A DNA stretch of 64,000 nt from Candidatus Berkelbacteria bacterium (GCA_016432625.1 CP066697.1:522561-586560), one strand, 5' to 3'. Shown: positions 20,315 to 52,323, counted from the stretch's first letter. Program-made: numbers and translations. Notes: generated by a model not told the origin, from the sequence alone.

Positions 20315-23300
20315 ATGCGGCGCTTAGACGGAGTTTATTCCTTGGGGGTGGTACTAAGTAGCAAACCGGTGCGCCGAGTTGGTTTGTTGTTGACGTTGCT
20401 CGCTGTTGTCATCGGCATCACTGGCAGTGGTTTCCTACCGACCCTTACCCAAAGCCAAACTGGCTCTGCCTCAGGTGCCCGTCTTTGGTCAAGCGGCGCG
20501 GAGCTTAACTCGCTGACCGCAGATATGGAGATCACCAGTTCCTCTGGTACTACACCAACGATCGACTCAACCACGAAACGCTCTGGCGGCTACGCCTACC
20601 GAGCCAACACCTCGAGTAACACGGCGACGATCTATAAGACCTGGGCCAACTCGGCACAACAAAATAAATTTTGGTTCCGAGCTTATATACGTATTGCCAC
20701 CGCACCAGGAACGGAGATCGGAATTTTCCGGGCTGGAACAAGTACTAACAATAAAATTGGTGTCCGGATGAATTCGGATCGGTCGATCGAGCTTTGGAAT
20801 GAAGAAGATAACGCCATAATTGGTTCGGCAAGTTCGGTATTAGCCACCAATACTTGGTACCGCATTGAGCTTTACATCGACACAACTACCCTCAGCAGCG
20901 CTGTCGCCGATATGGAATTACGTTTGGATGGTGTTCAAGTCGCCTCATCAACCGACCGAACTCTAGATGCCGGTGTTGATCGCCTCACTTGGGGAGTGCT
21001 AACTTCAACAACTGCCGACCTCTATTTTGACGACATTGCCGTCAACGACTCAACCGGACGAACTGACAACTGGCCCGGCGAGGGCAAGATTGTTCACATG
21101 CAGCCAGATGCCACCGGCGATAATGAGCAATGGGACAACACTACTGAGGCCGGGTCACCTACTGAGTGTGACGCCGCTGGCGACCCTAACTGGCAGTGTG
21201 TCGATGAAATACCACCCGACAACTCGACCACCTATTCGGCAACAACGACTAACAATGAAATTGACGACTATAATATCGAGTCCTCCACTAGCGCTGGCTT
21301 GACTGCGAACGACTACGTCAGGCTTGTCTCGGTTGGCGTACGGTTCCGGGCTTGCGGCACTACCACAGAGGGTTTCGGTTGCGCAGCAGGTGAATCTAAC
21401 CAAGACCTTGTCGTCAGGCTGAAAGCAGCTGCCAGCGGCACCACAGACGAAGCAACAACCACGGTTCTTGACAGCGATACTACCTGGCGAACCAATGATG
21501 ACGATTCTGCGCAGCTCAACAAGATTACTGATTATGACCTACCTGGTACGAGTACCTCGCCTTGGACGACAACAGATTTAGATAGTAGTCAAATCGGTGT
21601 CAAAACGAACACTAATAACGGAGTTGGTATCAGAGCATCGGCAATTTGGCTCCAAGTCGAATACGTTCCTAATTTTGGTGGGCGACTTTTTTCCAGTGGT
21701 TTTGAGCTTAACTCGACCGTTGCCGACGAGGAATGGACAGCGACAACTAGCAGCCCTGCTATCAATTCCTCGACATTTCGCTCTGGTGCTTACGCTCTTG
21801 AAACCGAGAACGCTGGCGGTGCCGAATGGATTCGCTACAACTTCGCAACGAGCAACACGACCGGCGATTACTTCGTTAGGGCCTATCTACGAATCGCTAC
21901 CGGGTTCGATTCAAGTGATGTCACTGTGTTGTCGATTCTCAACACTACTAACTCACGAAAGGCTTACATCAAGTTGACTGCATCTGAGACTTTGACACTC
22001 CACGATGAAGACGGCGCCATAGGTTCGGCATCTTCGACGCTTTCAACGGGCGTCTGGTACCGGGTTGAGTTGAAACTTGTTTGTGGCACTGCTTGCGATG
22101 ACGGTAACGACGAAGTTGACGGTCGACTTGACGGCGTGTCATTTGCTTCCTCAACCACACGTGACATAACTGCTGGGGGTGCGGCTCGGCTAGGTTTGGG
22201 CCTACACGCCAGTGACGACGCCGAGTCAACAACCAATACCGTTGGTGATTTAATTTGGGACGATGTAGCGTTAAACAAAAATCAAGGCTCATACCAAAAC
22301 ACCTGGCCTGGCGCGGGGAAGATTATCCACCTTAGACCGAATGCAACTGGTGACAACTCTGAAACTTGGGCTTCGGCTGGTTCGGAGACGACTACTTGTG
22401 ACGACGCCGCGGACGCCAACTGGCAGTGTCTTGATGAAATCACACCTGACGAAGCGACGAGTTATGTCGAAGAAACTACAACCGGGGATTACGAGGACTT
22501 TAACCTTGATGCTTCGCCAATCGGTGCCTCGGACACAGTGAACGTCGTTCATGTTGGCGCGCGTTTCCGAACTAGTTCGGCAACCCAGGAAGATTTCAAA
22601 GTCCGGATTAAAGATAATACTAGCGCCGTACCGATCGAATCAGATACGCTCTCGCCTGCTTCAACGACCTGGGTCAGTAACCGCACAGCCGCGCCCTATC
22701 AATACCCGCTAACGGCTTATACCAGGCCCGAGCAAGAAACAGCCTGGACCGATACACAGCTTGATACGGCCCAAATAGGCGTTCGCGACATTGCCGGCTC
22801 AGGCACTGTCCAGGTTTCGACGCTTTGGCTATTAGTTGACTACACCCCTCCAGAAATAACAATCTCCGGCTCCTGCGATCAGTACGATCAAACAACCGAC
22901 TGCACCGATGACGGTTCTAACGAAATCGCCGTCGCCGTAAACGGCACGATTCAAACCGGCAAGGTGGATGCGACTGTCGACGGCGCTTGGGCAATTTCCG
23001 GCGTAACTCAGCCGGTAATAAATGATATTGTCACTGTTTTCATCAACGGCGAGGCAACCGATGATGAAGAGGCCGTAGCAGTTACAAAATACGACGGCAC
23101 TGGCGACATCACCGGCATTCAACTTTTTTGGCGACACCTATCCATTGGCTCCGTCGACAACCAGACGCTCAGTAACACTGATCTTAGTCAGTACGATAAC
23201 TCGGTCTCTGCCGATGAAGATATCTTTTTCGACGTTTCAGCCGGCGATGACCTGACGGTCGATTCGCTCGGATCATATACCGATGAGGAGCTTTATATCG

Positions 23301-26300
23301 CTGCCGGTGATACTTTCCGTCCTGCCTCCGGTGGCGGCGCTGATGTTACCACAATGCACGTCGAGAACGACGGTACCTGGACTGCCGATGGAAATGTCGT
23401 AACGGTGAACGGCAACTGGCAGAACGACTCTGTCTTTTCTTCCGGCACTAGTACGGTGACCTTCAACACCAGCGTAACCGGCAGAACTCTGAGTGGCACC
23501 CTAAGTGGTGTGAATGGCAAGTTTTATAATATCGACTTTACGACTGCCGAAGGGACTGCCACCGACGATTGGGAGATCCAAGCGGCGGTTGAAGCGGCAA
23601 ATGATTTCACGCTATCCGCCGGCAACATCGACACAAACAACAATGCCGTTACCGTAACGCGAGACCTCACTCTCACTAACGCGCTTAATACCGACTTCGC
23701 CGCCGGTTCTTCAACGATTACTGTTTCGCGTCACTTCAATGACACGGGCGACAAGTACACCCATAGTACTGATACGTTAGTGATGGCTGGGACTGGGACG
23801 TTCACGGTCGCCAACAACAGTCAGTTCTATAACGTCCACCTTGGACCGTCTGGCTTTACTACGACGCTGTCGCTCAACGATTGGGATGTAAATAATGTTC
23901 TAACGTTTAACGGCGGCACTGTCGCTGGTGGCGGTGGCAGTTGGATCGACCTTCATTGTTCGGGAACGTGCACACCGGTAGTTTTCGCGTCGGCCACTAC
24001 CCTGAATAGCAGCCGCGACCTTATCTTCCGAACCAACTCAGCTAGCAGCGTCCTCACTATTACGGGGGCAAACTACGGTAGTTGGGGAATTGTCAATTAT
24101 GCCGCGACTGGTAACGGCTCAACGTTTCAGCTAGGCGGCAACATCACCACAACGTCTTTTGGCCCGAGGCTAGAGGCAACCAACGGCATAACGGGCAGCA
24201 TTTTTACTACTACGGCTAGTAATTACTCGATCACCTCGTCATCAATGCGCATCGCGCCGTGTACTCCCGCAAGAACTGGCTCGTGGACAGCAAGCCTTAA
24301 TGATTCTGTCATAGCGCTATCGAGCACGAGCGATGCGCTCTATGTTGGAACGGACTGCGGTTCTCATACCCTCAATCTCAATACTTCGGACGTGACAGTT
24401 TCTGGTAACGTCAAATTCGTGAACGGTACCGGTACGATTACTGTTGATCCTGGCACATCCGATTTCCGCTTTACTCCACCGACCGCTGCGGTCAAAACCT
24501 ACTCACCGAACGGACAGGCGCTCTATAACGTCTATATCAACGGCGCCACAAGTACCGCTGATGTGCAACCCGATGCAGCGGCGCAAATTAATAACGACCT
24601 CACCATGACCAATGGCCGACTTGTAGGCACACAAAACATCACCGTCAACGGCCACGTCCAAGGAACCGCAGGTGAGATCAATTTAACCAGTGGAACTTTC
24701 ACCCAACGCGTTTCGGCTAATAAAAATTTTGGTACGACTAGCGGCTCAACAGCTTGGACGTTTTCTTCCTTGACGTTCTCTAACTCGCACGCCTCAGCTG
24801 GAATTACCGTCACAACCCAGACTGGTGGTACAGGAGGAATCACCGTTACCACCCTGCTTAAAATTGGGTCAAGTGGAGATGCGGCAGGCGCCACAACGAC
24901 TCTAGATGCCGGTAACCGTACTTGGACTCTTTCTGGCAATGCCACCACCGGCATTCCGTTCGAAATCCTCGCTTCTCCGGCTGGCGTGCTAACGGCTAAC
25001 GTGTCGACATTTACCTACACAGGTAACATAGGCCTGGGTAATATGACAGTCCAAGCCGCGACCTACTACAACTTAGACATAAACCGTAACGGCGAAATTT
25101 TTGTCCTCGAGGGGACGACGAACGCCGGCAACGACTTAACCATCACCAACGGTACGCTCGACACGACAGCGTCAAACCATGGTATGAGTATTACCCGCGA
25201 CGTCCTAATAGCTAATACGGCGGGTGCTACTTTCCGGGCTAGAGGTTCGACTATCACCGTCTCCCGCGACTGGTCAAAAGGACTGAACGGAACTTTCACT
25301 CGCGACAGTTCGACCGTTCAGCTTAACGGTGACGGTCAAATCCTGACTGTCGGCGGCGGCCAAACCCAATTCGAAAACTTAACAGTGGCGTATAACACCA
25401 AAACGACGACGATGGCGACTGCCAGAACCGACGTGTTTGGAGTTCTAACTATAGGCGATGCAAGCGGCGGCACGATGACTTGCTCGGTAACATGTGAATT
25501 CGAGCTCTTTAGGACTGCTGGGGCTGATCTAGTCATCGGCACCGGAGCAACACTTTCTGGTTCAAATGCGACTTTTCAGCTACGCAAACAGAGCGCCGCG
25601 ACAGTGACTGTGACCGGCGCGACAAACTACGGCACCTGGAATATTCTGATGCGCGCCAACGTCTCTGCTGGAGGGTTGGTAACGTATAACGTTGGTGGCA
25701 ACATTACGACCAATGGCTATATTCAAGTCAAGGCAGATACGCTTAGTACCGCAACGTTTAACACCCAAAACTTCACAATCAATGCCGACAAGTGGATTCA
25801 GGGTGACTCTACTGACAACAGCGCCACAACTTCTAACTGGGGCTCGAGCACAGCTACCTTCGATCTTGCCAGTGCCGCCGACACCTTTTACGTAAGTTCA
25901 AACGGAGGGGCACAGGTGGCCAACTTCCAAACTGCTTCCATTTCAGCAACCGGACACGTTAAGTTCGTCAACGGTACCGGCACCTTAGCCGTTGATGACG
26001 GTACTTCCACTTTTACATTTGCTCCGACGACTGGCACATCAACATACTCACCAAACGGCCAGACACTTTACAACGTTATCGTTAACGGTGCTGCAACCGT
26101 GCAGCCCGACGCCGCAGTCGTCGTCGCAAACGATTTAACAATGACGGCCGGGACACTTAACGGAACCCAAAATATCACCGTCAACGGCAATGTCGCTGGA
26201 ACGGCCGGAATCATCAGCTTAACGGGTGGGACGTTCGAGCAGCGTCTATTGGCTAATGTTGGGAAAAACTTTGGAACTACTTCGGGGTCAACTGCCTGGA

Positions 26301-29300
26301 CTTTCAATGACCTTACTTTCTCTAGCGCAGCAGTGTTCGACACTTGGCAAACAATTACCACCCAAACCGGCGGCAGTGGCGGGATCACTGTAAGCGCCGT
26401 TATGAGAGTCAACCGAGCCGCCGGTGCCAACGACAACGACGGTATTATCTTGACAGGCGGCAATCGAACTTGGACGCTCTCGGGAGCGAGCGGAATTCCT
26501 CTCCGAATGGAGACAACTGATTTCGGTGGCTTTATTGGTCAGATTAACCCGGGCACTTCGACTTTTACGTTCACCGGTGACTACCCACTTGGGAACACAA
26601 CGGTCGAGCAAAACCCTAACGGTAGCTCCACTGGGTACTACAACCTCGATATCAATAACTCCTCCGAAACGTACGTGCTTGAGGGCAATACAACTGTTGG
26701 CAACGACTTGACGGTGACCAACGGGGCGCTATCAACCACTGGCTCAAATCATTCTCTTACGGTCACTCGCGACTTAACACTTGCCAATACTGCTGGAGTT
26801 GGACTCACAGGTAACGGCTCGACAATTACCGTCTCGCGCAACTGGACGGATTTGGGCGGTAAATTCACTCCGGGTACATCAACAGTCACGCTAAATGGCA
26901 CAGGAGCAATCGACCTTTCTACGGGATTTGAGTTCTATAACTTGAATCTCGCTTACTCGACGTTCACGACTACTCTACCAGCTTCAAAGACAATTAATGT
27001 CGAGAGTGTCGTAACGCTAAATGGTGGCACCCTCTCCGGTAGCTCATCAGTACTAACCCCCAGACCACGAGTTTCTAGTAAGCCTCTTGTCGTTAACTCC
27101 ACAACAGCTTTCACTGGTAGTGGATTCAATATAATCTCGTGGACCGGATACAACGCCAGTCTGACACTGACGGTTGACGGCGATAACTACAGTCATAGTA
27201 GCTGGAACCTCTTTTTCGCTGGCACAACCAATGACACCACATTCCAACTTGACGCAGGATTAACCACTTCAACAGAGGTGCGTGTGTACGCTGGGGGCGT
27301 AATAACTGGCACTGCCTTCAACACCGCCAATAACGCAATGACGTTATCTGGCTTTCGGCTTGGATCAGGCGGCGCTACTCAAACGGTTTCGGCTAACTTT
27401 GGCTCTTCAACTATATCGTTTACGGGTACCGGTAACACTCTCTACCCGGAAAGTACGGGCGGGACATACAACCTCGATCTAGGCACTTCTTCAATCACAA
27501 CGACTGGTGACGTTCGATTTATTAATACCAGCGGCACGATCACAGTCACCGAAGGCACTTCAACCGTTACCTTCACGCCGGCCGCTTCGGCCACCAGAAC
27601 TTATGCCCCGAATGCCCAATCGCTGTACCACGTCATTATAAATGGCGGCAATGATGCCGCCGAAGTTGACCTAACTGGAAACGCTGACTTTAACGGCAAT
27701 CTGACTGTCAGCGGCGGCCGGTTAGATACGATCACAGGTTCCGAGTACTCAATTGACGCCTTTGACGTTACTCAGTCGGGTACTGCGGCGATTAAAGCCA
27801 ACGCCGCGACAATTACTGTGCGGGGCAACTGGGTTAGTAACGCCACATGGAACTCAAATATCGGTACTTCAACTGTGGTATTTACTGGGGTCTCTAAATC
27901 TATCGACACATCGGGTAGCGGTGGATCGACGCGTCACTTTTATAAACTGACAATCAACTCAGGCGCCTCGATCAATCTTGCTGGTACAGAACTTGTTAAT
28001 ACCGACAGCGATGTCAACGTCCAAGGAACATTCAATATCACTTCTGCCTGCGGTAACGGCGTCTTTTACTACGGTGGAACAGGAACGACCCTAACGGTTG
28101 GTGCCTCGGGAGTCCTTGGTGGCAGCGGCGGTTGCTTTACCCTTATGACTGCTACGCCAACCTACTCATTTGCCGGATCAATTACGACCTCAAATTTTCG
28201 ATTCCAGATTACAACTTCAACAACGATTCCCGCTTATACATACGGCGGCAACCTCTATTTTCGGCCAACCAGTGGTAGCCCAACCTACACGATAGGAGCC
28301 GGAACGATGACCTTAACGAGCTCCTGGACTAACGAGAATACTGGCGCTGGCACACTGACGGTCGACAATACTGTCAATAATACGAACTTCACTGCGGGTA
28401 ATGCGTTTAACGCCCTATCGAGTTCTGGTTCGTATTCCTTCCTGATGGGCTCCGCTACTTACGATATTAACGGCGCCTGGAACGATGCGGACTCGGCCAG
28501 CTTCACTAATGGCACGTCGACAGTTCTGCTAAGTGGCACGGGCACACAAACTGTCAGTCGGGCTAGTGGCGCTAACACATTCTATAACCTACAAATCACT
28601 AACAGCTCTGGCGCTTCAGCATCGGACTGTGAGCGAACCGGTTTCACTGCCTCTGTCGATTTTGCTAACGACGTGACAGTAACCAATAATTTGACCTTCA
28701 CAACTGCCAACACCAGGGTTGAGTTCGATGATGCCAATACCTACACATTTAACAACATTAACTGGAATGGGCAGGCCGGTGGCACTCGCGTCTACTTCCG
28801 CAACAGCGCCGTTAGTGGCTCGTGGAACTTAAACGTCTCGGGCACACAGACAGCCGTAAGCTACGTTAATGTTTCAAGGTCAAACGCTTCAAGCGGTAAC
28901 ACCATTGGTGCGTCTAACGGCACGAATATAGACTGTGGTAATAACGTTAACTGGAGTTTTGCAAACCCGAGCTCACCGACTAATCTGGCGCAAAAGAAAA
29001 CTGACGACACGGTCATCACTACCGGCGGTTGGACCAACGAGCTCTCGGTTAAATTTACCGCTGATATTTCTGACGGGGACAACCCGGCGACAATTCAGCT
29101 CTGTGTCGAGCGCGACATTTTAGGAGTCTTGTTCAGTAATACTGAAGATTCTTGTGGCGCAACGGTTGCCTATTCCGGAACGCCGGTAGCAGCAAGCGTT
29201 ACAATCAGTGTCACCGATACAAACGAATACCACTGGCAAGCCAGGGTTAAAGACTCTGGGGGCGCCTACTCAGGCTGGGTTAGTTACGGCGGTAACGGCG

Positions 29301-30157: not shown

Positions 30158-30158
30158 G

Positions 30159-31271: not shown

Positions 31272-31311
31272 AACTTTACAGGATGCAAAACCGGTCATAT
31301 ACTGGCAACAG

Positions 31312-32415: not shown

Positions 32416-32453
32416 TGCTTGACATGGTTCGGCCTAAAGTAGAGATTGGAAGT

Positions 32454-33581: not shown

Positions 33582-33584
33582 ACT

Positions 33585-34574: not shown

Positions 34575-34602
34575 CCGATTACCTTTTTGTTAAGATGAGT
34601 TA

Positions 34603-35583: not shown

Positions 35584-35605
35584 TTTTCTTGCCAAGGACG
35601 ACTAG

Positions 35606-36577: not shown

Positions 36578-36591
36578 GCTTAAATTGAACG

Positions 36592-37539: not shown

Positions 37540-37610
37540 CCCGCTTCGATCCAACACAGTCAAGGTTCGTAACAGATTGATTTTTGCTGCTAAAACAGTA
37601 GAGTCGAAGT

Positions 37611-40600: not shown

Positions 40601-43600
40601 AGTTGGTTCAACCAACAGCGATACAGCTGATTGCGCCATCACGTTTGGTTCGGGAACGGCAACGAACTGCTCCAATACACGAGATTTAGTTGGGCCGGGG
40701 ACGGCCAATCGATTTGATAACGCCGCCGAAGATGAATCGGCAACGATGGGAACAGGTGACGCCAATGCGTACTACGCATTCGATAATGAAACAACTCCGG
40801 ACACCACTGCTGAAGAATCGACTTCGGCCAACATCTCGTTTCCGGTTACGCAACCAACCAACAGCTCGATCGTTGGCGAGCATTACGCTTCCCGCTTCTC
40901 CGGCTGCGGTAACACCGGCAATGCCTGTGGAGCTGCGGCGCTGACAGTTCAGGCTGCGTTCAAGGATTACTCCGGCTTCAACGCGGCGCTTGGAGGCTAT
41001 AGCACACTGGTAGGCGGCACTTCAGGCTCATCGACGTTAGCATATACCGACAGTATTACGGCCATGTCGATTGCTATCTACGGCCAACAAGCCAACCCTG
41101 AAGATTATATTGATACGGCGGGCAACAAGATCAACATGCGCTTGCGTCCAACTACTCCCGGCACGGCGGCCAGCAACGTCACCACCGTCTGGGATTTTGC
41201 GATGGTTAGTATCCAGTGGATCGAAATCGGCAGCATCATCGATATCCAAGGCAATTCTAGTGTTGCTAGCCAAACAATCGCCGTCGCTATTGATGGCTTA
41301 CTCCAGGTTGGTAAAACCGCGACGGGTGCTGGCGGCGGCTGTCCGTGTGCTTGGACAATTTCTTCAGTCTTTGTCGGTAAGGGTCGAGCAGTCTTAGTTT
41401 GGCACGACGGAGCCAGCGACGCGAACGAATCAAGTGGGATAACCAATTACGACGGGAGCGGCAACATCACTGGCATGGAGCTGACCGCTCACACTCTCTC
41501 GGTTGGGTCAACCGACGATCAGTCTAAAACTTACTCTGAGCTAGTTCTTTTCGACAACGATGCGGACGAAGACGTGATGTATAAGGCCGTCTCCAATGCG
41601 ATAACCGTTGACGCAACGAGTACTTATTCAGACGACACGTTGAATATCTTAAGCGGCGACACCTTGATCGTCGGTGGCAGCGAGACGTTAGCAGCTTACA
41701 ACATCACAATTGATGGTACCTTAACCTCAGGTGGTGCCACTGCCTATACTATTCAAGGTGACTGGGTCAATAATGGCACCTTCAACGAGTCAACGAGTAA
41801 CGTGACGATGAACGGCACAACGAGCGAGGATCTAGATTCTGGGTGTAGCGATACTGATACTTGTACAGCCGAGAATTTTTATAATTTAACAATTAATAAA
41901 ACTGACGGCGACGACGCCAACGACAACGCGACACTGACCAATTTTGGTGTTCGCGTTACCAACATCCTAACAATTACCGACGGTGAGCTGATCCAGGGCA
42001 CGTTCAACGTTAGGGCCGAAGGCAGCAGCGCTGTCTCCGTGGCCGCGGCCGGTAAATGGACGAATATATCTACCGGGGATGTGAAACTCGGCGGCACCGT
42101 CGTCAACGACGGAGCAATAATCCTTAACTCTAACAACGGCACTCAATGCGTTGACGCAGCTAACGATATTGCGATCACCTCGACGAGCGGCGGCTCAGTC
42201 CGAACCTGGTCGGGCAGCGGGACAGAGACGATCTATAATGTGGCAGCAACCGATATGGCTGACAGCACAGTTACTGCCTATACCTCAACTCTGACTAATA
42301 CAACTTGGTCGGTGGGCGCTTGTGGTATCACGATTTCTGGTGGTTGCTTCACCGATGAAGGCGAGGGAACGGGCTGTACTGACGATCCAGCTAGCGAAAT
42401 TAAGGTGGCTGTGAATGGCACGCCTAGCGGCGCGGTTGACGTTGGTGTTGATAGTAGCTGGTCACTTACCGGCGTCACTCAACCATCAGCCAACGATATT
42501 CTGGTCATATATATCAACGCCGAATCGACTGAAACTGAGGAAGCGACTACGGTCATAAAGTACGACGGTGCCGGCGACGTCACCAACGTCCGTCTCTATC
42601 TTTCGCAGCTAGTGATAGGCGCTGATTCCGGTTCGACCAACAGCGATCAGACAATCACTGTCGCCGATATGGACACAACCACCAACGGTTACGAGAACAG
42701 CGACGATGAGGACGTCCTCTACGACGTCACGGCCGGCGCCGATCTAACCGTTGACGCTGAGGCCAACAAATCCGAGCAGCTCTATATTATTAACGGCGAT
42801 ACTTATCGGCCGGCATCAGGTGGTGGCTCCGACACGTCAACGCTCAACTTAGAGATTGATACGTCGGCTGTGGTTACCGCCGACTCTAACGCCTTTGCTA
42901 TTGCTGGCGACTGGAATAACAACGGAACGTTTACCGCTAATACCTCAACCGTCACGTTTTCTGGAACATCCAAAACTCTGTCCGGAACAATGACCGGCTC
43001 GACCGGCAAGTTTAATGATCTGGTTTTCAACGGTTTGGGCGGAAGTTGGGGTTTTAACGCTGCCGTTGAGGCCGGCAACGATTTCACGGTGACAAACGGA
43101 GCAGTGACAGCTAATAACAACAACCTCACTGTTGGGCGCGACTTCACGCTGGCTAACACCGCTGGCGTTTCTTATACTGCCGGCTCCTCAACACTTAATA
43201 TCACTCGGCACTTCAACGACACTGGCGGCACCAAATTCGTTGAAGACACCTCGACGGTCAATCAAACTGGCACCGGAACGATCACGGTCGGAAACGGCGG
43301 CGACTTTAATAACCTATCAATCGGTTATACGGGTTTTACAACGACGCTCTCAAATAACAACTGGGATGTTTTTGGGATAATTACACTTAACGGCGGCTCT
43401 GTTACAGGTGGCGGTTCGTACATCAACCTCTTCAGGGGCACGACAGGATCATCCGTTACATTTGCCAGCGCGACAACGCTTTCGGGAACCCAAACAATCT
43501 ACCACCGTGCCTCGGCCGGAAGTATCACCTACACCATCACCGGCGGTAACTACGGCAGTTGGGGCGTAGTTCCAATCTCTCCGACTGGTATCAACAGCGT

Positions 43601-45656
43601 CATCTACACGTTAGGCGGCAACTTCACCTCAACTGGGTTTATCCGCTTGGAGGCTGATGATGGAGTGACGGGTAGCACTTTCAATACCAGTGGCTCGAAC
43701 TATTCCATTACAACGCCCAGTATCACCGTTGCTCCATGCGCACCAACGCGGACAGGTGCCTGGGCAATCGACTTTAATGACTCATCGATCGCCTTAACTA
43801 GCACAGTAACGTCATTTGCTCTGGGTTCAAACTGCGGTTCCCATACATTAGATCTGGATACGTCGGATGTGACGGTCAACGGTGGTGTTCAGTTTGTGAA
43901 CGGCACTACCTCCCTAACCGTTACCCCCGGTTCATCAGATTTCACCTTCGCCCCGACCGCCTCGCAGACCGAAACCTACGCACCAAATGCTCAGTCGCTC
44001 TGGAATATGATCATTAACGGCGCTAACGGCGCTGCAACAATCCAGCCGTCCAGCGCCGTCGACGTCAATAACAACTTCACAATTACTGCCGGAACGTACG
44101 ACACAGTAACCGCTCAGAATTACGCCTTAACTGTTGGTGGTAACTTTTCAAATAGCGGCACCTTCACCGCGCAAAATGCTAACGTGACCCTTGACGGTAG
44201 TTCAACGCAAACTGTTAGCGGAACACTAACCGGGGCATCGGCTTTCTATAACCTAATTGTCACAAATGTATCCGGTGCCTCAGCTTCAGACTGCGAGCGA
44301 ACCGGCTTTACACCATCAGTTGATTTTAATGTTGATGTAACCGCCACTAATAACCTTACCTTCACTACGGCAAACACTCGCATTGAGTACGATGATGGCA
44401 ATACCTACACCTTCAATAATATTAACTGGAACGGACAAGCCAGTGGCACGCGGATTTTCTTCCGAAATTCAGCAGCCAGCGGCACTTGGCTATTAAAGGT
44501 AACTGGTACTCAAACTGCTGTGTCGTTCATTAATGTCTCTCGAAGTGATGCTTCGGTGGTCGGCGGCAGTACCATCGCCGCGACAGATGGAAGTAATGTC
44601 AATTGCAACAACAACACCAACTGGGACTTTGGCGCTTCGACCTATGAACAGGCGGATTTCAGATTCGGTAATGAGCCAGAAGACACTTCGACAGACAGCG
44701 ATTACACCGGCGTACCGGCTGAAAACACTGCTTACCCGACGAACGGAACGGGGGATGTTTTTCGGTTGAGACAATTGATCCACGTGAGCGGTAGCAATCT
44801 CAGCATTAGCGGCGAGAATTTCAAGTTACGTTTTGGAGAAAAGACCACCTCGGATTGTACTAGCGGTGTCACTTGGGGCGACGTCGCCTCTGGTTCAGGC
44901 GTGATTAGATATTCCAATGGTTCGCCGGCTGACGGCGATAACATAACTAGTAATGCCGGCGACCCAGACCACGCTGGGCACACAAAGCAGTATCAAGATT
45001 ATGAGGAAGCCAACAACTTTACTAACTCCGTATCAGCAATTAACGTCGGCGAGGACGGAGTCTGGTCATTTTCCCTGGAGAATAACTCTGCCGTTGGCGG
45101 AAAAAGATATTGCTTTAAAGTCACTAAATCCGACAATACCGACCTTGATACTTACACCTTCTACCCGGAGGTGATTGTAGAGGAAGAGCTGATTGCCAGT
45201 TTGGATGCGACGAGCAAAGATTTTGGCGTGGTTCAACCAGGCGGCAACCCGACTGATGTCAGCTCAACGCTTACTACAAGTACCAACTCTAGTACCGGTT
45301 ACGTCGTCTACACCTGGTCCACGCAAGCAATGACTCGCGGTAGTTTCACAATCGCCGACTGGACAGGAACTAACGCCTCGCCGACAATTTTCGGTAACGG
45401 CAGTTTCGGTTTTGGCTATACGACGAACGATATTACTTTAACGGGAGGCACTGCTGACCGTTTTAACCCAGGAGGCGCTGGTGCTAAGTACGCCGGCTAT
45501 ACTCATGTCGGACCAGGAGACCCAGTTGCCGACCGGACAAGCGGCCCAACGACCGGGCAAACAGATACCGTGACATATCGTCTTGCCGCCGGTGGAAGTC
45601 AGGCCGCGGGGAAATACCAGACAGTGATAGTGTATGTTTGGAGCGTCACGTTCTGA
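37611..45656 (+). CDS. Giant cell-surface protein A2 (2681 aa), paralog of A1, with an N-terminal TM anchor, two ~570-aa tandem N-terminal modules, a Thr/Gly/Asn-rich repeat region and the conserved C-terminal domain ending ...YVWSVTF
   Basis: Single ORF. About 80 percent nucleotide identity to A1 in the shared module (for example 44270-44550 versus 28600-28880). Confidence 0.8.
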   Translation: MEGKLRGRIDGVYRSGVTLLANTWKNHPYRFPVLLIVFLLSLTVSNSLVFFPKNEDGTRAETAKASTYQFVPTGGNLVTGTDLNANSLLAAAAEGVNTGSWKGTLADDNFHWVVDMLASGTPNVNMQLDLGTAKLTNANKLLIQTEIDMDNASHLLTVQICDWVSSTSVDAAADSQCTTGGWRSLNSQNASNADVTIGLTTSTGFQWHIFDGYFTTGTTGGSAISTPLTNFTSSDTQPIRIRYWSDSDVTCSSDCNLGIDFLRATAFVDSIYHPAGVVNQNGSGGALAGTYANAHVVGNSSTAQQSVTAGNAVYLTGAGTAGSVADYYLVFKNVKTYTGANTFYFKADYSCSAATAGLDHKFSIYNFATTTWVDLNSAVIACSVTDATNAWAENNITPSDFIDESASDEVRVRFLGDLNSTTTLRIDFAYLVLGSTNADSAQCEVTWGTGTATNCANTRDLVGPATATVFSDPAETRSNTADNDYYALDCDFNTTANECSAANIDFPVTVPVDAQVVVNHFAGRFAGDLVGTTNPDLTAQMGIRDYSGTPTSTSGPGGWTLVGASSATLTQIYTDSITALLIGTYGMQINPDDHVDTNNNEMNLRLRTTLSGLDSQDSRWEWDFAMVSIGWVVDSSHPTRDYQFAPTGDTLAAGTETARLALTAAANTGVNTGGWQGTLGDDNLHWTVNGANVVGTNFDVQLNFTTAKQNGANMMLIQTEFDTDLNIGAKIQICDWVSSTSVDAAADGNCTTGGWRSINSQDASNNDVTYTGTTAVVLQWHIFDGYFTTGTTGGSAISTPLGNFFHSSNGVKIRYFSTTQTATAIDIDFLRIQPIIDTIYHPASVTNLNGSGGALAGTYANAHVVGNTVSAQQSVTAGNAVYLTGAGTAGSIADYYLSFKNIKTYAGMNTFYFKADYSCSAATANLDTEFAIYNFTSAAWEDLTTAAIACSTTDATHAWAKNNVTMADYINGGETRIRYYGDLNSATTLRLDFAYLVVGSTNSDTADCAITFGSGTATNCSNTRDLVGPGTANRFDNAAEDESATMGTGDANAYYAFDNETTPDTTAEESTSANISFPVTQPTNSSIVGEHYASRFSGCGNTGNACGAAALTVQAAFKDYSGFNAALGGYSTLVGGTSGSSTLAYTDSITAMSIAIYGQQANPEDYIDTAGNKINMRLRPTTPGTAASNVTTVWDFAMVSIQWIEIGSIIDIQGNSSVASQTIAVAIDGLLQVGKTATGAGGGCPCAWTISSVFVGKGRAVLVWHDGASDANESSGITNYDGSGNITGMELTAHTLSVGSTDDQSKTYSELVLFDNDADEDVMYKAVSNAITVDATSTYSDDTLNILSGDTLIVGGSETLAAYNITIDGTLTSGGATAYTIQGDWVNNGTFNESTSNVTMNGTTSEDLDSGCSDTDTCTAENFYNLTINKTDGDDANDNATLTNFGVRVTNILTITDGELIQGTFNVRAEGSSAVSVAAAGKWTNISTGDVKLGGTVVNDGAIILNSNNGTQCVDAANDIAITSTSGGSVRTWSGSGTETIYNVAATDMADSTVTAYTSTLTNTTWSVGACGITISGGCFTDEGEGTGCTDDPASEIKVAVNGTPSGAVDVGVDSSWSLTGVTQPSANDILVIYINAESTETEEATTVIKYDGAGDVTNVRLYLSQLVIGADSGSTNSDQTITVADMDTTTNGYENSDDEDVLYDVTAGADLTVDAEANKSEQLYIINGDTYRPASGGGSDTSTLNLEIDTSAVVTADSNAFAIAGDWNNNGTFTANTSTVTFSGTSKTLSGTMTGSTGKFNDLVFNGLGGSWGFNAAVEAGNDFTVTNGAVTANNNNLTVGRDFTLANTAGVSYTAGSSTLNITRHFNDTGGTKFVEDTSTVNQTGTGTITVGNGGDFNNLSIGYTGFTTTLSNNNWDVFGIITLNGGSVTGGGSYINLFRGTTGSSVTFASATTLSGTQTIYHRASAGSITYTITGGNYGSWGVVPISPTGINSVIYTLGGNFTSTGFIRLEADDGVTGSTFNTSGSNYSITTPSITVAPCAPTRTGAWAIDFNDSSIALTSTVTSFALGSNCGSHTLDLDTSDVTVNGGVQFVNGTTSLTVTPGSSDFTFAPTASQTETYAPNAQSLWNMIINGANGAATIQPSSAVDVNNNFTITAGTYDTVTAQNYALTVGGNFSNSGTFTAQNANVTLDGSSTQTVSGTLTGASAFYNLIVTNVSGASASDCERTGFTPSVDFNVDVTATNNLTFTTANTRIEYDDGNTYTFNNINWNGQASGTRIFFRNSAASGTWLLKVTGTQTAVSFINVSRSDASVVGGSTIAATDGSNVNCNNNTNWDFGASTYEQADFRFGNEPEDTSTDSDYTGVPAENTAYPTNGTGDVFRLRQLIHVSGSNLSISGENFKLRFGEKTTSDCTSGVTWGDVASGSGVIRYSNGSPADGDNITSNAGDPDHAGHTKQYQDYEEANNFTNSVSAINVGEDGVWSFSLENNSAVGGKRYCFKVTKSDNTDLDTYTFYPEVIVEEELIASLDATSKDFGVVQPGGNPTDVSSTLTTSTNSSTGYVVYTWSTQAMTRGSFTIADWTGTNASPTIFGNGSFGFGYTTNDITLTGGTADRFNPGGAGAKYAGYTHVGPGDPVADRTSGPTTGQTDTVTYRLAAGGSQAAGKYQTVIVYVWSVTF
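37812..41235 (+). repeat. Tandem intragenic duplication of about 1.72 kb in two copies, encoding the N-terminal modules of A2
   Basis: Both copies begin YQF(V/A)PTG and contain IQICDWVSSTSVDAAAD..CTTGGWRS(L/I)NSQ, WHIFDGYFTTGTTGGSAISTPL and FYFKADYSCSAATA. Nucleotide identity is about 75 percent. Confidence 0.7.
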
Positions 45657-46618: not shown

Positions 46619-46678
46619 GACTTGACAAAGAAGCGTCGAGGTCTGATATTGGAGTTAATGAGTAGAGGGAGGGCAGTC

Positions 46679-47809
46679 ATGAATCAGTTGCGGGGTTTAT
46701 TTTACTTGGTCTTACTGTCCGGCTTAGTCGTTGTCAACTTTTGGGTTCAACCAGTTTCTGCTGTTGCACCTGAAGATTTGACCGTCCTCTTATCGGATTC
46801 GCGCCCCTCAACGGTTGCTAACTGGACTATTACTCACGATCAAGAAGCAACCGCTCAACTTCAAGCCGCCGATACTTTAGTCTTAACCATACCAACCGGA
46901 TTCGCTATTGGTAGCGTTGATCAGACCGACATCGACTTTAAGGTCGCCTCAACAGACGAGGTTCTGCAAACTGGTGCTTGTGGCGCCACTGACACGGTTC
47001 GCTACACTATTGCCGGTCAGGTAATGACGTTCGACCCGTGCGACAGTTACACCGCCGAAGCCGCTGGCTCGATTATCGAAATTGAGATTGGTTTACACGC
47101 CTTATTTACCGACACCGCTAACGCCCAGATCACCAACCACGCAACCCCCGCAACTTACACCGTGACGAGCGATACTTCAGATGAGGATGCTAAAGATGCA
47201 CTAATTGCGGTTGTCAGTGGGGTAACTGTATCTGCCACTGTCGATGAATCGCTAACCGTTGCCGTTAATGCTGTTTCAGCGGGAGCGGCCTGTGATGATA
47301 ACGGCGGCACACCAACTGAAATCACCACAACAGCAACAACGGTGCCGTTTGCTACTGTGGCCACGGAAGCATTCTATAACGGGTGCCAGAGAATTGACGT
47401 TGATACTAACGCGGCGGGTGGCTACACTGTCACCATTGCTCAGACTCAACTTTTAACTTCGGGCGCAACTACGATTGCCGAGGGAACGTGCGATGGTGCA
47501 TGTAACGACACCACACTTGGGGGCTGGGAAACAGCGACCAACAACGGTTTCGGTTACTGCGCCGACGATCGAGCTGGTAACGCTGGTGCGGATGCTGGAA
47601 TTGCCGCGGCGGATCAGTGCGACGATACAACACCTCTCTACTACACCTTCTTCACCGATCCAACGGAACCGACTGTCGACTTCATGTTTTCCTCGGGACC
47701 AATATCCGGTGATCAAACTAACGTCTCCTTCCATCTATCAGTGCCAGGAGACCAGTCAGCAGGCACATATCAAAACGTTGTTTACTACGTCGCGACGCCT
47801 ACTTTCTAA
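46679..47809 (+). CDS. Secreted surface protein B4 (paralog of B1-B3; ends TYQNVVYYVATPTF)
   Basis: ATG at 46679 has GAGGGAGGG 5 nt upstream. Mature N-terminus APEDLTVLLSDSRPSTVANWTITHDQ. Confidence 0.65.
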   Translation: MNQLRGLFYLVLLSGLVVVNFWVQPVSAVAPEDLTVLLSDSRPSTVANWTITHDQEATAQLQAADTLVLTIPTGFAIGSVDQTDIDFKVASTDEVLQTGACGATDTVRYTIAGQVMTFDPCDSYTAEAAGSIIEIEIGLHALFTDTANAQITNHATPATYTVTSDTSDEDAKDALIAVVSGVTVSATVDESLTVAVNAVSAGAACDDNGGTPTEITTTATTVPFATVATEAFYNGCQRIDVDTNAAGGYTVTIAQTQLLTSGATTIAEGTCDGACNDTTLGGWETATNNGFGYCADDRAGNAGADAGIAAADQCDDTTPLYYTFFTDPTEPTVDFMFSSGPISGDQTNVSFHLSVPGDQSAGTYQNVVYYVATPTF

Positions 47810-47846
47810 ACCTTAACTTCTGTCCTACAATGAGGTGGAATATTTG

Positions 47847-48860: not shown

Positions 48861-48862
48861 TT

Positions 48863-50092
48863 ATGCCCAGGGGGCGGTTATGGGCCATTATTCTTCTCAC
48901 CTTCCTGTCTGTATTCCAAGTTCCCTCAGCACTGGCAGTGCGTCCCGATTCAGTGAAAGACACCTTGAGCGACTCTCGCAAGGCAACAAATAGCCGACAT
49001 ACCATCACTGTTGATATGTCAGCGACGACAGTTTTCTCCGCAGGCGAGAGCTTCGGACTAACTTTTGGTAGCAACTTTACCCTTCCTGCCCTTTCGGCCA
49101 GTGACATCTCATTCGACGACGGTACCAGCCGGACAGTCTTAGCCACTTGCGTTGCCGGCGCCAATAACATCGGCCTTGCTGTTGCCGGGCAGGTTGTGAC
49201 TCTAAGCGCGTGCGCTGGTTTTACCTCAAGTGCTGCAGGAGCAAGTGTCACTATTGTTGTCGGCACAGGATCAACGCTCGTCTCTAACCCCGCCACATCT
49301 GGCATCGCCAGCCTGACAGTCGCCGGTAGCTACGGCGATGATTCACGAACAATAGCAGTCGCTATTATCGAAGGCGTGACTGTCTCCTTAACAATTCCGT
49401 TGCCTAACGGCGATGTTCGCTTTACGGGCGATGTCTTCCCCGGAGCGATCGTCAGTATCTTAGACGGTGGTATGGTCGCCGGAACAACGGTCGCCAACGC
49501 TGCTAGCTTCTTTGATAAGACGATCCAGGGCTTGCTACCAGGGCTGCACACGTTTGGTGTTTTCGGACAATCTCTCGACGGCCGTCGAACTTTAACCTTA
49601 AGCTTCACTATCAACGTTGTCGCTGGCTCCACGGTGACGGTCAGTGGGATTCTACTGCCGCCAGTAATCTCCGTGCCCGCTAGCGAAAAACGGCCAGTTG
49701 CGTTAATTGAGTCTGGGTTAGCACGACACAACAGCACCGTAACAACATTCACTAATAGCCATAATCAGATTTCACAACAGGTTTCGACAAATTCAAATGG
49801 TGAATGGAGCGTCTCGATTGGCGACGTGCTTCATCTCGGGGGCCACACGGCCTCAGCGCTAGTCAATGACGGCAACGGTAACCAATCTGTCTTAACTGAC
49901 GCAAAGTCATTTGAAGTAATGCTCTCGGCCGACCTTAACATCGATAACCTTGTTAGCCTAACGGACTTTTCGATGCTAATGTTCAACTACGGCACCTCTA
50001 ACCCTGCTAATAAGGCTGCCGACATTAACGACAACGGCCCTGTGGACCTAGTAGATTTCTCTGTAATGATGTTTTACTGGACAGGTGGCTAA
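48863..50092 (+). CDS. Secreted protein with a C-terminal type-I dockerin domain
   Basis: Two Ca-binding dockerin repeats, DLNIDNLVSLTDFSMLMFNY and DINDNGPVDLVDFSVMMFYW, at the C-terminus. The mature N-terminus (RPDSVKDTLSDSRKATNSRHTITVD) resembles that of the B family. Confidence 0.65.
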   Translation: MPRGRLWAIILLTFLSVFQVPSALAVRPDSVKDTLSDSRKATNSRHTITVDMSATTVFSAGESFGLTFGSNFTLPALSASDISFDDGTSRTVLATCVAGANNIGLAVAGQVVTLSACAGFTSSAAGASVTIVVGTGSTLVSNPATSGIASLTVAGSYGDDSRTIAVAIIEGVTVSLTIPLPNGDVRFTGDVFPGAIVSILDGGMVAGTTVANAASFFDKTIQGLLPGLHTFGVFGQSLDGRRTLTLSFTINVVAGSTVTVSGILLPPVISVPASEKRPVALIESGLARHNSTVTTFTNSHNQISQQVSTNSNGEWSVSIGDVLHLGGHTASALVNDGNGNQSVLTDAKSFEVMLSADLNIDNLVSLTDFSMLMFNYGTSNPANKAADINDNGPVDLVDFSVMMFYWTGG

Positions 50093-50158
50093 TGAATATT
50101 AGACACTGGCCGGTAGAAGCTCGAAGCGTTAGCAAGATGTTTTACTGGACGGGCGGAT
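50068..50158 (+). repeat. Direct repeat. The last 7 codons of the dockerin gene (MFYWTGG-stop) are duplicated 68 nt downstream, just upstream of the next gene.
   Basis: GATGTTTTACTGGACAGGTGGCT at 50068-50090 versus GATGTTTTACTGGACGGGCGGAT at 50136-50158. Confidence 0.6.
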
Positions 50159-50648
50159 GATGAGACGTGTTGTAATACTTATCGCCCTTATTGCTGCCGT
50201 GCTCGTTCTGTATTGGCTTCTGAGGTTACCAGGAAGCGCAAAAATCGATCTTCAAGCACCCAAAACCATCTCAGCCGGTCAGAATTTTGAAGTCCCTCTG
50301 CGGCTCAGCGTTCCGACTGCTATTAATGCCGCCGAGTTTTACTTCAGCTTCCCTAACGACAAGCTCGAGGTGATCGAAATCAAAAAGGAGGGTAGCTTCT
50401 TCGCTCTCTGGATCACTGGTTTCCCCAAATTCACTAACGAGTCAGGTAGCCTAGAGTTGGCGGGTGGCCTGCCCAAACCTGGTTTCAGTGGCAAAAATGG
50501 CTTGGTTGCAACCGTCGTCTTTAAGGCAAAAGCCAGCGGCGAAGCAATTATTAGTTTGGACTCGAAAAAAAGCCGATTACTCGCTAACGACGGTCTTGGC
50601 AGCCAAGTTGTCTCTACCTTTCAACCTGTCACAATAAATATTAAGTAA
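50157..50648 (+). CDS. Small membrane-anchored cohesin-domain-like protein
   Basis: N-terminal TM, then ISAGQNFEVPLRLSVPTAINAAEFYFSFPNDKLEVIEI..., a cohesin-like beta-sandwich pattern. Confidence 0.5.
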   Translation: MMRRVVILIALIAAVLVLYWLLRLPGSAKIDLQAPKTISAGQNFEVPLRLSVPTAINAAEFYFSFPNDKLEVIEIKKEGSFFALWITGFPKFTNESGSLELAGGLPKPGFSGKNGLVATVVFKAKASGEAIISLDSKKSRLLANDGLGSQVVSTFQPVTINIK

Positions 50649-50649
50649 G

Positions 50650-52323
50650 ATGCAATTACAGAGGGGATTATTAATTTGGCTAGTGGTTTTGGGGTTATTT
50701 GCTCTTTTGCTGCCCCAACCCGTTTCGGCATCAGGACGTTTAACAGTAACGGCCGGTTCGATAAAAACCGATATAAATAAAACATTCACCGTAAATGTGA
50801 ACCTAAGCAGCGACGAAGCCGTTAACTCGGCCAGCGGCCAGGTTATCTTTCCAGGGTCGTTGCTACAAGCTACAGCAGTGAGTCAGAGCGGTTCGATATT
50901 TAGCCTTTGGCCAGAACCGCCCAGCATTAACGGCGAGAGCATCAATTTTGCTGGCGGAATGCCAAGCCCTGGCTATACTGGCACTGGCAAGCTATTCAGC
51001 ATCACTTTTAAGGCCAAAGCGGCCGGCACGGCCAATATTAGCATCGCTAACGGTAAAACGCTGGCCAACAACGCTAGCGCCACAAACGTCTACGCCGGCA
51101 GTAGCGGTTCGGTGGTCACCATCAGCAAACCCGTAACCCCGCTCACCATTTCTTCCTCAACCCATCCCGACCAGGGTAAGTGGTATAAGGATAAATCGGT
51201 TAGCTTATCCTGGAATAAGCCCTCAGGGGCGACGAGTTTTAGCTATAGCTTTGGCACTAAGTCAGGCACGACTAAAGAGAGTTCAATCAGCTTCCCTGAT
51301 ACACCTGAAGGAAAATGGACGTTCGATCTCTCAACTCACGCAACGGACGGCGACCTGCAGGCCAGTTACGCGGTCCAGATCGACTTAACGCCACCTGTCG
51401 AATTCCCAGTTAAAGTGGTCCAGAGCGGCGGCAACACTGATCCTTTCCCCGTACTGTCATACGAGGCGACTGACGCTCTCTCCGGAATCGACCACTACGA
51501 GATCATTATTGACGCGAGCGAACCACTTAGCATAGCTGAGTCTTCAACGAAGCTAGCGCGGCAACAACCAGGCACCCATCACTTCAAGGTACGTGCCTTC
51601 GATAAGGCAGGTAACGTCACTGAAGTGTTAGGACAATTTGAGGTTCAAGGGTTTCCAGGGCCAGTTATAACTGAATACCCACACTTCGTATCTGTCTTGC
51701 AGCCTATAGTGTTCAAAGGCACGGCATTGTTAGGATCGAAGGTGAAACTCTACGTCGAAGGCAAGGAGATCGCCGAGTTTGTAGTTCGGGAGAGCCTAAC
51801 GGATAGCCAACGTCAGCTAATTAACCTCCAAGAGGCGCCAGACGACCAAGTGGTTGAGTGGACGTATACGTACAAGGGAGTGCTGTTCCCCGGTAAGCAC
51901 TTATTTTATGCCATCCAAGTAAAGGCGGACACCTCTGAGAGTAACCGCTCGAACGAGGCAGCCGTGACGGTTCTGTCAGGCTCGGTAGTGCTAGGTTCAA
52001 TTACCCTTCCCATGGCGCTCATAGCGATCTTGTTATTGATCATACTGTTAGGAGCCACTCCTTTCTTTTTCTTCATCTGGAAACGAGCCAAACGTCGTTT
52101 CGCTAGCGTGGCTGAGCGTATGCGGCAAACTCGCCATCAGATCGACAAAGAGTTTGCAGATCTTGAGCGCGACATCGACAAAGACCTTCATAAAGCGGAG
52201 ATCGGCGGTGCGGTCTTCCGTCAGGTTGAGGCGGATATTGAAGACAGTAAGAAGGCCGTCGACCAGAAGTTAGATAGTATCACTAAGAATAGTTCGATCC
52301 CTCCAGAAAAAAGTGGCGACTAA
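50650..52323 (+). CDS. Surface protein with an N-terminal cohesin-like domain, Fn3/Ig-like domains, a C-terminal TM and a cytoplasmic coiled-coil tail
   Basis: Signal peptide. The N-domain is paralogous to 50157..50648 (RLTVTAGSIKTDINKTFTVNVNLSS...LFSITFKAKAAGTANISI). The C-terminal TM is ALIAILLLIILLGA, followed by a charged tail. Confidence 0.55.
   Translation: MQLQRGLLIWLVVLGLFALLLPQPVSASGRLTVTAGSIKTDINKTFTVNVNLSSDEAVNSASGQVIFPGSLLQATAVSQSGSIFSLWPEPPSINGESINFAGGMPSPGYTGTGKLFSITFKAKAAGTANISIANGKTLANNASATNVYAGSSGSVVTISKPVTPLTISSSTHPDQGKWYKDKSVSLSWNKPSGATSFSYSFGTKSGTTKESSISFPDTPEGKWTFDLSTHATDGDLQASYAVQIDLTPPVEFPVKVVQSGGNTDPFPVLSYEATDALSGIDHYEIIIDASEPLSIAESSTKLARQQPGTHHFKVRAFDKAGNVTEVLGQFEVQGFPGPVITEYPHFVSVLQPIVFKGTALLGSKVKLYVEGKEIAEFVVRESLTDSQRQLINLQEAPDDQVVEWTYTYKGVLFPGKHLFYAIQVKADTSESNRSNEAAVTVLSGSVVLGSITLPMALIAILLLIILLGATPFFFFIWKRAKRRFASVAERMRQTRHQIDKEFADLERDIDKDLHKAEIGGAVFRQVEADIEDSKKAVDQKLDSITKNSSIPPEKSGD

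Follow-up and report, generated by a model that had tools for sequence, protein, structure and literature searches.

A cell-surface gene cluster in a Candidatus Berkelbacteria genome as a probable two-cassette, divergent variant of the candidate phyla radiation Pam pilus

The 64,000-nucleotide stretch CP066697.1:522561-586560 (assembly GCA_016432625.1; hereafter the window, with positions counted from its first letter) comes from a metagenome-assembled genome (MAG) of Candidatus Berkelbacteria, which belongs to the candidate phyla radiation (CPR, or Patescibacteria). CPR bacteria rely on contact with host cells, and most of their surface machinery is without annotation. Positions 20315-52323 of the window hold a cluster of genes for exported proteins that probably (we put this at roughly 0.7) comprises two divergent Pam-type pilus cassettes, in which two giant proteins (A1 and A2) would form the tips, four pilin-like proteins (B1-B4) the shaft, and three membrane-tethered proteins (C1-C3) would serve as chaperones for assembly by donor-strand exchange. 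We would class the cluster as a diverged form of the CPR Pam pilus and not as a system of a new kind. What is new is its occurrence in a Berkelbacteria genome at scores under the current NCBIfam model cut-offs, the giants bearing an acceptor domain, a conserved partner with a Big_1 domain and a transmembrane (TM) segment, a pilin-dockerin/cohesin module, and the link of the Pam chaperones to WxLIP, the DUF916 component of WxL/Csc surface clusters.

The Pam pilus was described from Ca. Mycosynbacter amalyticus as an usher-less, chaperone-assisted fibre, and its donor-strand-exchange polymerisation was shown by cryo-electron microscopy (cryo-EM); each pilin donates its linker strand to the C-terminal domain of a neighbour (bioRxiv 10.64898/2026.03.03.709456). 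The parts named there are the pilins PamA/B/E, the proposed PapD-like chaperones PamC and PamD with a C-terminal TM helix, PamT as a proposed acceptor-only tip, and PamR as a proposed membrane anchor with an N-terminal strand. The NCBIfam entries for this system are NF058581 and NF058579. The same preprint makes no mention of WxL, DUF916, Berkelbacteria, dockerin or cohesin.

The first line of evidence is a domain of about 165 amino acids (aa) common to the extreme C-terminus of the giants and the B proteins. That these proteins share such a domain had been proposed in an initial annotation of the window and holds: against a profile of the B C-terminal domain (CTD), A1 reaches 55 bits over its final ~168 aa and A2 reaches 35 bits, and in both cases the alignment extends to the last residue. 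The same annotation called the domain novel; instead, it gives a consistent match to NCBIfam NF058581 'CPR_Pam_pilin_C' (CPR Pam pilus pilin C domain; profile length 148, curated cut-off 55 bits), the family that stems from the Ca. Mycosynbacter amalyticus pilus. The strongest match in the window is that of A2 (E 8e-10, 39 bits, profile 15-148/148), followed by B4 (E 2e-5, 2-148/148), A1 (E 4e-5, 3-148/148), B3 (E 2e-4, 12-148/148), B1 (E 1.4e-3, 13-148/148) and B2, which matches at E 3e-3 over only the last 45 profile positions. The link is unbroken within the family: among the 63 B-family homologs, 42 match NF058581 at E<0.01 (best 7.7e-25), and three tandem pilins from a Paceibacteria locus (L010) reach 60-85 bits, above the cut-off. 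The full B-family profile recognises two of these three (E 2.5e-58 and 1.5e-40), and the remaining one is matched by the CTD profile only. No Pfam family, WxL PF13731 included, matches the shared domain. Because the domain matches a family that polymerises by donor-strand exchange, polymerisation into a pilus, with the giants as tip subunits, is a likelier mechanism than adhesins that simply dock on the cell wall by non-covalent contacts.

The domain is far from confined to the window. A profile search of 1.84 billion representative proteins returned 1830 clusters carrying it at E<=1e-3, 550 of them at E<=1e-10, and in the best 150 of the 1830 clusters it always lies at the C-terminus or no more than about 5 residues from it. 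The best 150 include 146 newly returned proteins, all of which (146/146) have Y, F or FP at their end; in length, 106 of them exceed 450 aa, 82 exceed 1000 aa and 25 exceed 2000 aa. A giant protein with a terminal acceptor domain is a widespread architecture.

The second line of evidence comes from the B proteins, B1 (30159..31271, + strand), B2 (31312..32415, +; 367 aa), B3 (32454..33581, +; 375 aa) and B4 (46622..47809, +), of which B4 is a divergent pilin-like subunit belonging to the second cassette. Four paralogs had been claimed and four are present, at about 370 aa and not the ~390 aa first given; the NCBI homolog of B1 is 370 aa, and B2 is identical to P0001, the Candidatus Berkelbacteria protein HZB70_04065. 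B1, B2 and B3 match each other at BLASTP E values of 1e-110 to 1e-141, with B1 59% and B3 63% identical to B2, while B4 matches B2 at E 2e-11 and the B-family hidden Markov model (HMM) at E 5e-81. The pilin-like layout, as given for B1, is a beta-sandwich at the N-terminus, then a linker strand, then a Pam-like domain at the C-terminus. In the AlphaFold2 (AF2) model of B2 (pLDDT 93.1), two all-beta domains are joined by residues ~189-206, which are extended, unpaired and assigned no strand by DSSP; the candidate donor linker of B2 is DNDVTVNATVDPR (31891-31929), and its counterpart in B4 is VTVSATVDESLTV. PamA and PamB have the same two-domain plus linker architecture (bioRxiv 10.64898/2026.03.03.709456).

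Across the 63 homologs, against an overall mean of 2.60 bits per column, the top conserved 12-residue windows are the linker at residues 199-210 (VNATVDPRITCA, 3.31 bits/column) and the C-terminal strand at 353-364 (GAYTDTLTYVCT, 3.30), a pattern also reported for the Pam pilins (bioRxiv 10.64898/2026.03.03.709456). The mature forms of B1-B3 contain exactly four cysteines, two in the N-terminal domain and one each in the first and last strand of the CTD; PamA and PamB likewise have paired cysteines. The PDB copies used lacked the Pam structures 25PZ and 25QA; within them the B family has no sequence match, and the fold matches of the B2 model are generic (YweA/BslA, Gram-positive pilins, TasA-like proteins, CsuA/B and CfaB). 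Judged from the predicted structure, the B proteins fit the Pam pilin architecture.

The C proteins supply the third line of evidence. C1 (33585..34574, +), C2 (45656..46618, +) and C3 (47847..48860, +; 337 aa, identical to P0121) are chaperone candidates with a signal peptide and a C-terminal TM helix, as initially described for these proteins of about 330 aa, and the PGG(H/Y)Y-like and (P/L)PW motifs noted at first are present in all three; in C1 the TM segment spans residues 282-300 and is followed by a basic tail. Matches to C3 are at BLASTP E 2e-30 for C1 and E 2e-10 for C2, and the C-family HMM recognises C1 at E 2e-84 and C2 at E 6e-62. C3 is annotated at NCBI as a DUF916 domain-containing protein and scores 40.3 bits against PF06030 (WxLIP_PGBD, i.e. 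DUF916), which passes the gathering score of 27.3; C1 (E 0.0066) and C2 fall under that score, and 52 of 54 C-family members match PF06030. PF11797 (DUF3324), for which a search had been advised, is not detected by Pfam in C1-C3. The C-family profile also retrieves EfmWxLIP1 from the PDB at E 3e-6.

The AF2 model of C3 (pLDDT 92.4, pTM 0.80) has two beta-sandwich (Ig-like) domains and a C-terminal TM helix. Its best Foldseek matches are the Enterococcus faecium WxLIP structures 9i1y (E 4.5e-12) and 9i25, 'WxLIP bound to long WxL' (1.1e-11), and the whole ectodomain aligns structurally with the WxLIP chain 9i25_C over 290 columns; next in the list come dozens of chaperone-usher chaperones, among them CfaA, CsuC, Caf1M, FimC, DraB, SafB, FaeE and EcpB. 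The first proposal that the C proteins are related to the DUF916/CscA/WxLIP component is borne out by Pfam, the PDB profile match and Foldseek together: the relation to the DUF916 component found in WxL/Csc clusters is one of true homology. From the model and its fold matches, the C proteins therefore also agree with the description of PamC and PamD, and the operon is predicted to encode the PapD/FimC-like two-domain chaperone with a C-terminal TM helix that is expected of a Pam system.

The giants, A1 (20315..30157, +) and A2 (37611..45656, +), are secreted proteins and candidate tip adhesins of cassettes 1 and 2, respectively; the open reading frame (ORF) listing agrees with the sizes first given for them, 3280 and 2681 aa, and they match each other at BLASTP E 4e-146. 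The Pam-like C-terminal acceptor domain of A1 is coded at about 29654-30154 and the corresponding domain of A2 at about 45132-45653; the C-terminus of A2 further matches that of B4 (BLASTP E 7e-7). In both giants, the alignment to the linker/CTD profiles starts no earlier than the first CTD strand ('VLPTLTF' in A1), and the 'DNDVTVNAT' donor linker strand that would precede it is absent. On sequence grounds, A1 and A2 would represent the acceptor-only subunit without a donor linker that a Pam system contains, as giants rather than as a small PamT. Outside the C-terminal domain, A1 has no Pfam, NCBIfam or PDB sequence match, and neither full-length giant matches an NCBIfam model; only the excised C-terminal fragments match NF058581.

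The giants also begin in a similar manner, with a conserved cytoplasmic motif R/K-(L/I/F)-D-G-(V/I)-Y before the N-terminal hydrophobic segment (MRRLDGVY in A1, 20315-20440; GRIDGVYR in A2, 37611-37770). The motif occurs in 12 of 82 representative proteins of more than 1000 aa with the same C-terminal domain (carriers include P0258, P0261, P0262, P0264, P0267 and P0270) and in 0 of 40 that are no longer than 450 aa; one possible function is in export or signal anchoring, specialised for the very large surface proteins of CPR bacteria.

The fourth line of evidence is gene order. The ORF listing gives 15 cluster genes, all on the + strand and one more than the 14 first counted, in the order A1, B1, B2, B3, C1, Big_1/TM, two beta-lactamase-fold genes, A2, C2, B4, C3, dockerin and two cohesin genes. 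Ten related loci (L001-L010), found in a scan with 18 closer B-family sequences, derive from Berkelbacteria, Saccharibacteria/Saccharimonadales, Paceibacteria and unclassified Patescibacteria MAGs. The three families first proposed as a functional set do co-occur in them: a C gene stands directly after the pilin gene(s) in all nine loci with enough flanking sequence, and in six of the nine the pilins are preceded immediately 5' by a giant that carries the shared C-terminal domain (A1-like giants hold this position in L001-L004, L006 and L007). The order giant (2008-3291 aa), one to three pilins, C and Big_1 is found in L001-L004 and L007, L006 has giant, pilin and C gene, and L008 and L009 have the downstream part of the cassette; the order pilin, C, dockerin protein and cohesin is found in L008 and L010. 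In several genomes, the cassette sits between clpP-tig and pgk. Since this order recurs across the related loci, what the window contains is a conserved locus expanded to two cassettes. The domain architectures, family memberships, fold matches and gene co-occurrence described here are established.

By analogy with the Pam and chaperone-usher systems, we infer donor-strand exchange, a place at the tip for the giants, and terminator and anchor roles for some of the remaining proteins, and assembly would run as follows. All components would be exported by Sec, and C1-C3 would hold new subunits at the membrane by complementing their incomplete Ig-like C-terminal domain. A1 or A2 would start the fibre and come to sit at its distal tip as adhesin, because an acceptor domain is present and a donor linker is absent; each further B pilin (from B1-B3 in cassette 1, B4 in cassette 2) would then be added by insertion of its conserved inter-domain linker strand (DNDVTVNATVDP) into the groove of the subunit before it. 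Growth would end with a subunit that donates but cannot accept, at which point the fibre would be closed and anchored, by the Big_1/TM protein in cassette 1 and, in cassette 2, by the protein combining a pilin N-terminal domain, a linker and a dockerin, which Coh1 and Coh2 would hold to the membrane.

Both of these candidate terminators were overlooked in the initial annotation, which had noted neither the conserved fourth family of Big_1/TM proteins nor the dockerin/cohesin module. The Big_1 protein (34603..35583, +) consists of a signal peptide, an Ig domain that matches PF02369 at 42.8 bits, above the gathering score, a TM segment at residues 208-226 and a cytoplasmic coiled-coil tail. Its gene stands right after the C gene in L002, L003, L008 and L009, and Big_1-bearing variants are present in L001, L004 and L007. 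The mature N-terminus (QTNSVVNANVVSSVSAT; QNTTVNATVVSSV in L003) is linker-like in all homologs, and by analogy the protein is a candidate for the PamR-like terminator and membrane anchor of cassette 1. The variants in L001 (13198-14688), L004 (14341-16152) and L007 (12363-13781) are longer, at 472-603 aa, and have CarboxypepD_reg/SdrD_B-like domains in place of the coiled-coil tail seen in the window.

The dockerin protein (48863..50092, +) is built from a pilin N-terminal domain, a linker strand, one or more Ig-like domains and a C-terminal dockerin with two clear D-x-N-x-D Ca-loop repeats. Only its residues 8-179 match the B-family HMM (E 1e-27), it matches the N-terminus of B4 at BLASTP E 6e-20, and it has no acceptor domain. 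Downstream lie Coh1 (50157..50648, +), a small cohesin protein with an N-terminal TM segment that scores 32.1 bits against PF00963 (gathering score 24.1), and Coh2 (50650..52323, +), a secreted protein of cohesin and Ig-like domains with a TM segment at 451-469 and a charged cytoplasmic tail, which is 35% identical to Coh1 (E 7e-15). An ortholog of the dockerin protein occupies the same position in L008 (E 5e-146 to that of the window) with a Coh1 ortholog 3' of its gene, and in L010 the dockerin scores above the Pfam gathering score and relatives of Coh2 are present. The dockerin protein is a candidate chain terminator of cassette 2 that would dock to the cohesins. Cellulosomes offer a close analogy, with a type-I-like C-terminal dockerin and cohesins on membrane-bound partners encoded adjacently; unlike in cellulosomes, no glycoside hydrolases or scaffoldin are found here and the dockerin forms one protein with a pilin N-terminal domain and linker, so that the pair would anchor a fibre, not enzymes.

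Several points weigh against reading the cluster as a Pam-type pilus. The window proteins reach only about 17-39 bits against NF058581, under its cut-off of 55; the Berkelbacteria system is described here from genes and predicted structures, and donor-strand exchange is beyond single-chain predictions of the kind made here. The Pam tip is the small, single-domain PamT (~240 aa), whereas here the acceptor domain sits on giants of 2681 and 3280 aa, and the Pam anchor is the RbmA-like PamR, in place of which a Big_1/TM protein and a dockerin-cohesin pair are found. The resemblance of the Big_1 N-terminus to the pilin linker is not significant in a linker-HMM scan (E~7), and the Dockerin_1 match (E 1.3e-3, 19.3 bits) and the cohesin match of Coh2 (E 1.4e-3) are both under their Pfam gathering scores. 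The two systems further differ in host and in location, as the published Pam operon lies near ATP synthase genes and the window's locus in the clpP-tig ... pgk interval. They agree in being CPR-restricted, in having Sec signal peptides throughout, in the PapD-like chaperones with a C-terminal TM helix, in an acceptor-only presumed tip, and in having no usher, sortase or ATPase.

The alternative that survives best, though it is unlikely, keeps to the WxL/Csc model, as put forward at first: A and B would be monomeric and held through their C-terminal domain, which would bind peptidoglycan and/or be permanently complemented by the membrane-anchored DUF916-type C proteins, and the giants would be anchored non-covalently. 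In WxL clusters, WxLIP (DUF916, DUF3324 and a TM segment) accompanies small and large WxL proteins (PMC1534035, PMC9772566, PMC10599100), and the cluster mirrors the definition of PMC10599100 in that a common C-terminal domain is found on both a large multi-domain protein and small proteins beside a membrane-anchored DUF916 protein. The homology of the C proteins to WxLIP (9i1y, 9i25) by both sequence and fold is genuine, and this half of the WxL/Csc comparison stands; the other half, a significant similarity of the shared domain to WxL itself, does not. The Pfam search that had been proposed finds no PF13731 match in the shared domain at E<=1, the terminal motifs are of the Y-x-V type with the dual W-x-L motifs absent, and WxL alignments compared by hhalign with the B family, with the window CTDs and with a 152-sequence domain profile give probabilities of only 1.5%, 0.1% and 1.4%; membership of the shared domain in the WxL family was accordingly rejected on sequence grounds. 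Real WxL clusters from Enterococcus plasmids, used as controls, are recognised by Pfam at 1e-38 (WxL), 1e-39 (DUF916) and 1e-38 (DUF3324), and they show no match to NF058581.

Two weak hints of WxL kinship remain in the shared domain. The hairpin 'AGTYQ..V.Y.V' falls in register with 'GATYQGMVTWEL' of 9i25_A, the long WxL crystal structure, and in the best local alignments the 9i25_A segment 'GATYQGMVTWELTAGP' is in register with 'AGTYQNVVYYVATPTF' of B4 at the C-terminal hairpin; in addition, a broad profile of the shared domain gives one short WxL protein of 174 aa a score of 15.7 bits, which none of 6000 shuffles reaches. A monomeric anchor is opposed by the assignment of the shared domain to the family of Pam pilins, whose polymerisation cryo-EM has demonstrated, and by the full pilin architecture of the B proteins with its hyper-conserved linker, a conservation that would have no obvious role in such an anchor. 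Unlike the WxL/Csc clusters of Lactobacillales and Listeria, the cluster has no DUF3324 by sequence in C1-C3 and no LPxTG partner among its 15 proteins, and its small proteins carry the additional N-terminal domain and conserved linker.

A rather improbable second alternative separates the giants from the pilus: the B pilins would form Pam-like fibres of their own, and each giant would be bound singly and directly by a membrane protein (Big_1/TM or C) that gives a strand to its C-terminal domain, so as to produce a coat of long adhesins. An acceptor domain needs one donor strand and candidate donor membrane proteins are encoded nearby; in cassette 2 it is moreover the C gene, rather than a pilin gene, that directly follows A2. 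The conserved order of giant followed by pilins and the common domain family nonetheless suggest joint assembly, and an acceptor-only subunit is expected at the tip by analogy with PamT and with chaperone-usher pili.

The classical pilus types were rejected: a sortase-assembled Gram-positive pilus on the finding of no LPxTG-like sorting motif in the 15 proteins and no sortase among their Pfam matches, and membership in the chaperone-usher class on the finding of no usher or PapD-family (PF00345/PF02753) Pfam match in the same 15 proteins. Chaperone-usher pili (Pap/Fim, CFA/I, Csu, Caf1) do share with the cluster the fold of C3 (CfaA, CsuC, Caf1M, FimC), a similarity at the level of fold only, the appearance of CsuA/B and CfaB among the fold matches of B2, and a logic of tip, shaft and terminator. 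They differ in that the cluster has no outer membrane and no usher to work with, its chaperones are membrane-tethered, its subunits have two domains, and an internal linker, in place of an N-terminal extension, would provide the donor strand.

If the cluster is a Pam-type pilus, the locus would extend this pilus to a Berkelbacteria genome in a form that current NCBIfam models miss. The Pam pilus would also be able to carry giant adhesins; such acceptor domains end hundreds of very large CPR proteins. A cohesin-dockerin pair may serve as its anchor. In lactobacilli, enterococci and Listeria, where the assembly of the WxL/Csc clusters has been a standing question since 2006, the homology between the chaperones and WxLIP/DUF916 would provide a concrete, testable mechanism. 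A strand of DUF916 is predicted by AF2 to insert into WxL (PMC10599100), which resembles donor-strand complementation, and no relevant literature turned up in searches for WxL together with Patescibacteria, with donor strand or with chaperone-usher. It is possible, although we would not favour it at present, that one ancient usher-less system of monoderms gave rise to both the Pam pili of CPR bacteria and the WxL/Csc systems of Firmicutes, with a membrane-tethered chaperone, DUF916/WxLIP, putting subunits together by strand complementation or exchange in either branch and WxL as a diverged acceptor domain, and that some CPR bacteria mount tip adhesins of 2000-3600 aa on such fibres with a dockerin-cohesin base. 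Were this common origin true, WxL proteins would be strand-complemented and possibly polymerising subunits, not simple peptidoglycan binders. In a side observation on the Enterococcus clusters, E. faecium WxLIP1 has its best match among plasmids (52% identity) in CP069367.1 (L013), a nearly unannotated record labelled as a Klebsiella pneumoniae plasmid, which may be mislabelled or chimeric.

Between the two cassettes lie two genes (35606-36577 and 36592-37539, both +) for proteins of the class-A beta-lactamase fold with an N-terminal TM segment. They are 42% identical and match PF13354 at 115 and 91 bits, far under the NCBIfam beta-lactamase cut-offs; a homolog is found 3' of the Big_1 gene in L004. 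The pair may or may not belong to the pilus system, and a role in cell-wall remodelling is possible.

All 15 cluster proteins begin with an N-terminal hydrophobic export segment, to which C1-C3, the Big_1 protein and Coh2 add a TM segment on the C-terminal side. The tight spacing reported for the cluster is upheld, with gaps of 1-71 nt at the revised starts in place of the 0-60 nt first given, as is the TGATG-type overlap of 1 nt, in which the ATG of C2 lies over the stop codon of A2. Database homologs and ORF translations indicate that some starts had been taken too far upstream; the revised probable starts are 31312 for B2 (ORF opening at 31222), 32454 for B3 (ORF opening at 32397), 45656 for C2, 47847 for C3 and near 48863 for the dockerin gene. 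A scan of the locus for promoters and terminators returned counts equal to the shuffle expectation and was uninformative.

According to the ORF listing, the + strand run is uninterrupted between trigger factor (tig, 19015-20187, -) at its upstream border and pgk (52320-53468, -) at its downstream border. The pair clpP-tig (16983-20187) lies directly 5' of the giant gene on the opposite strand, and likewise in L001, L004, L007 and L008. A WxL cluster of E. faecalis (L014, 3055-8885; large protein, WxL, and DUF916+DUF3324) also adjoins tig on the opposite strand, which may be either coincidence or conserved synteny. Upstream of clpP, an 840-aa right-handed beta-helix protein (14375-16897, -; PF13229, NosD-like) is probably another surface protein, outside of the cluster. 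Just 3' of pgk, two ORFs of about 320 aa (53493-54473, +, and 54453-55397, -) have no Pfam match at E<=0.001. Further upstream in the window are the 16S rRNA gene (12481-13936, -), followed by tRNA-Ile (12134-12207, -), and tRNA-Ala (7001-7073, -); because about 5 kb of protein-coding ORFs set tRNA-Ala apart from 16S and tRNA-Ile, and Rfam finds no 23S rRNA in the whole window, the rRNA operon appears to be split.

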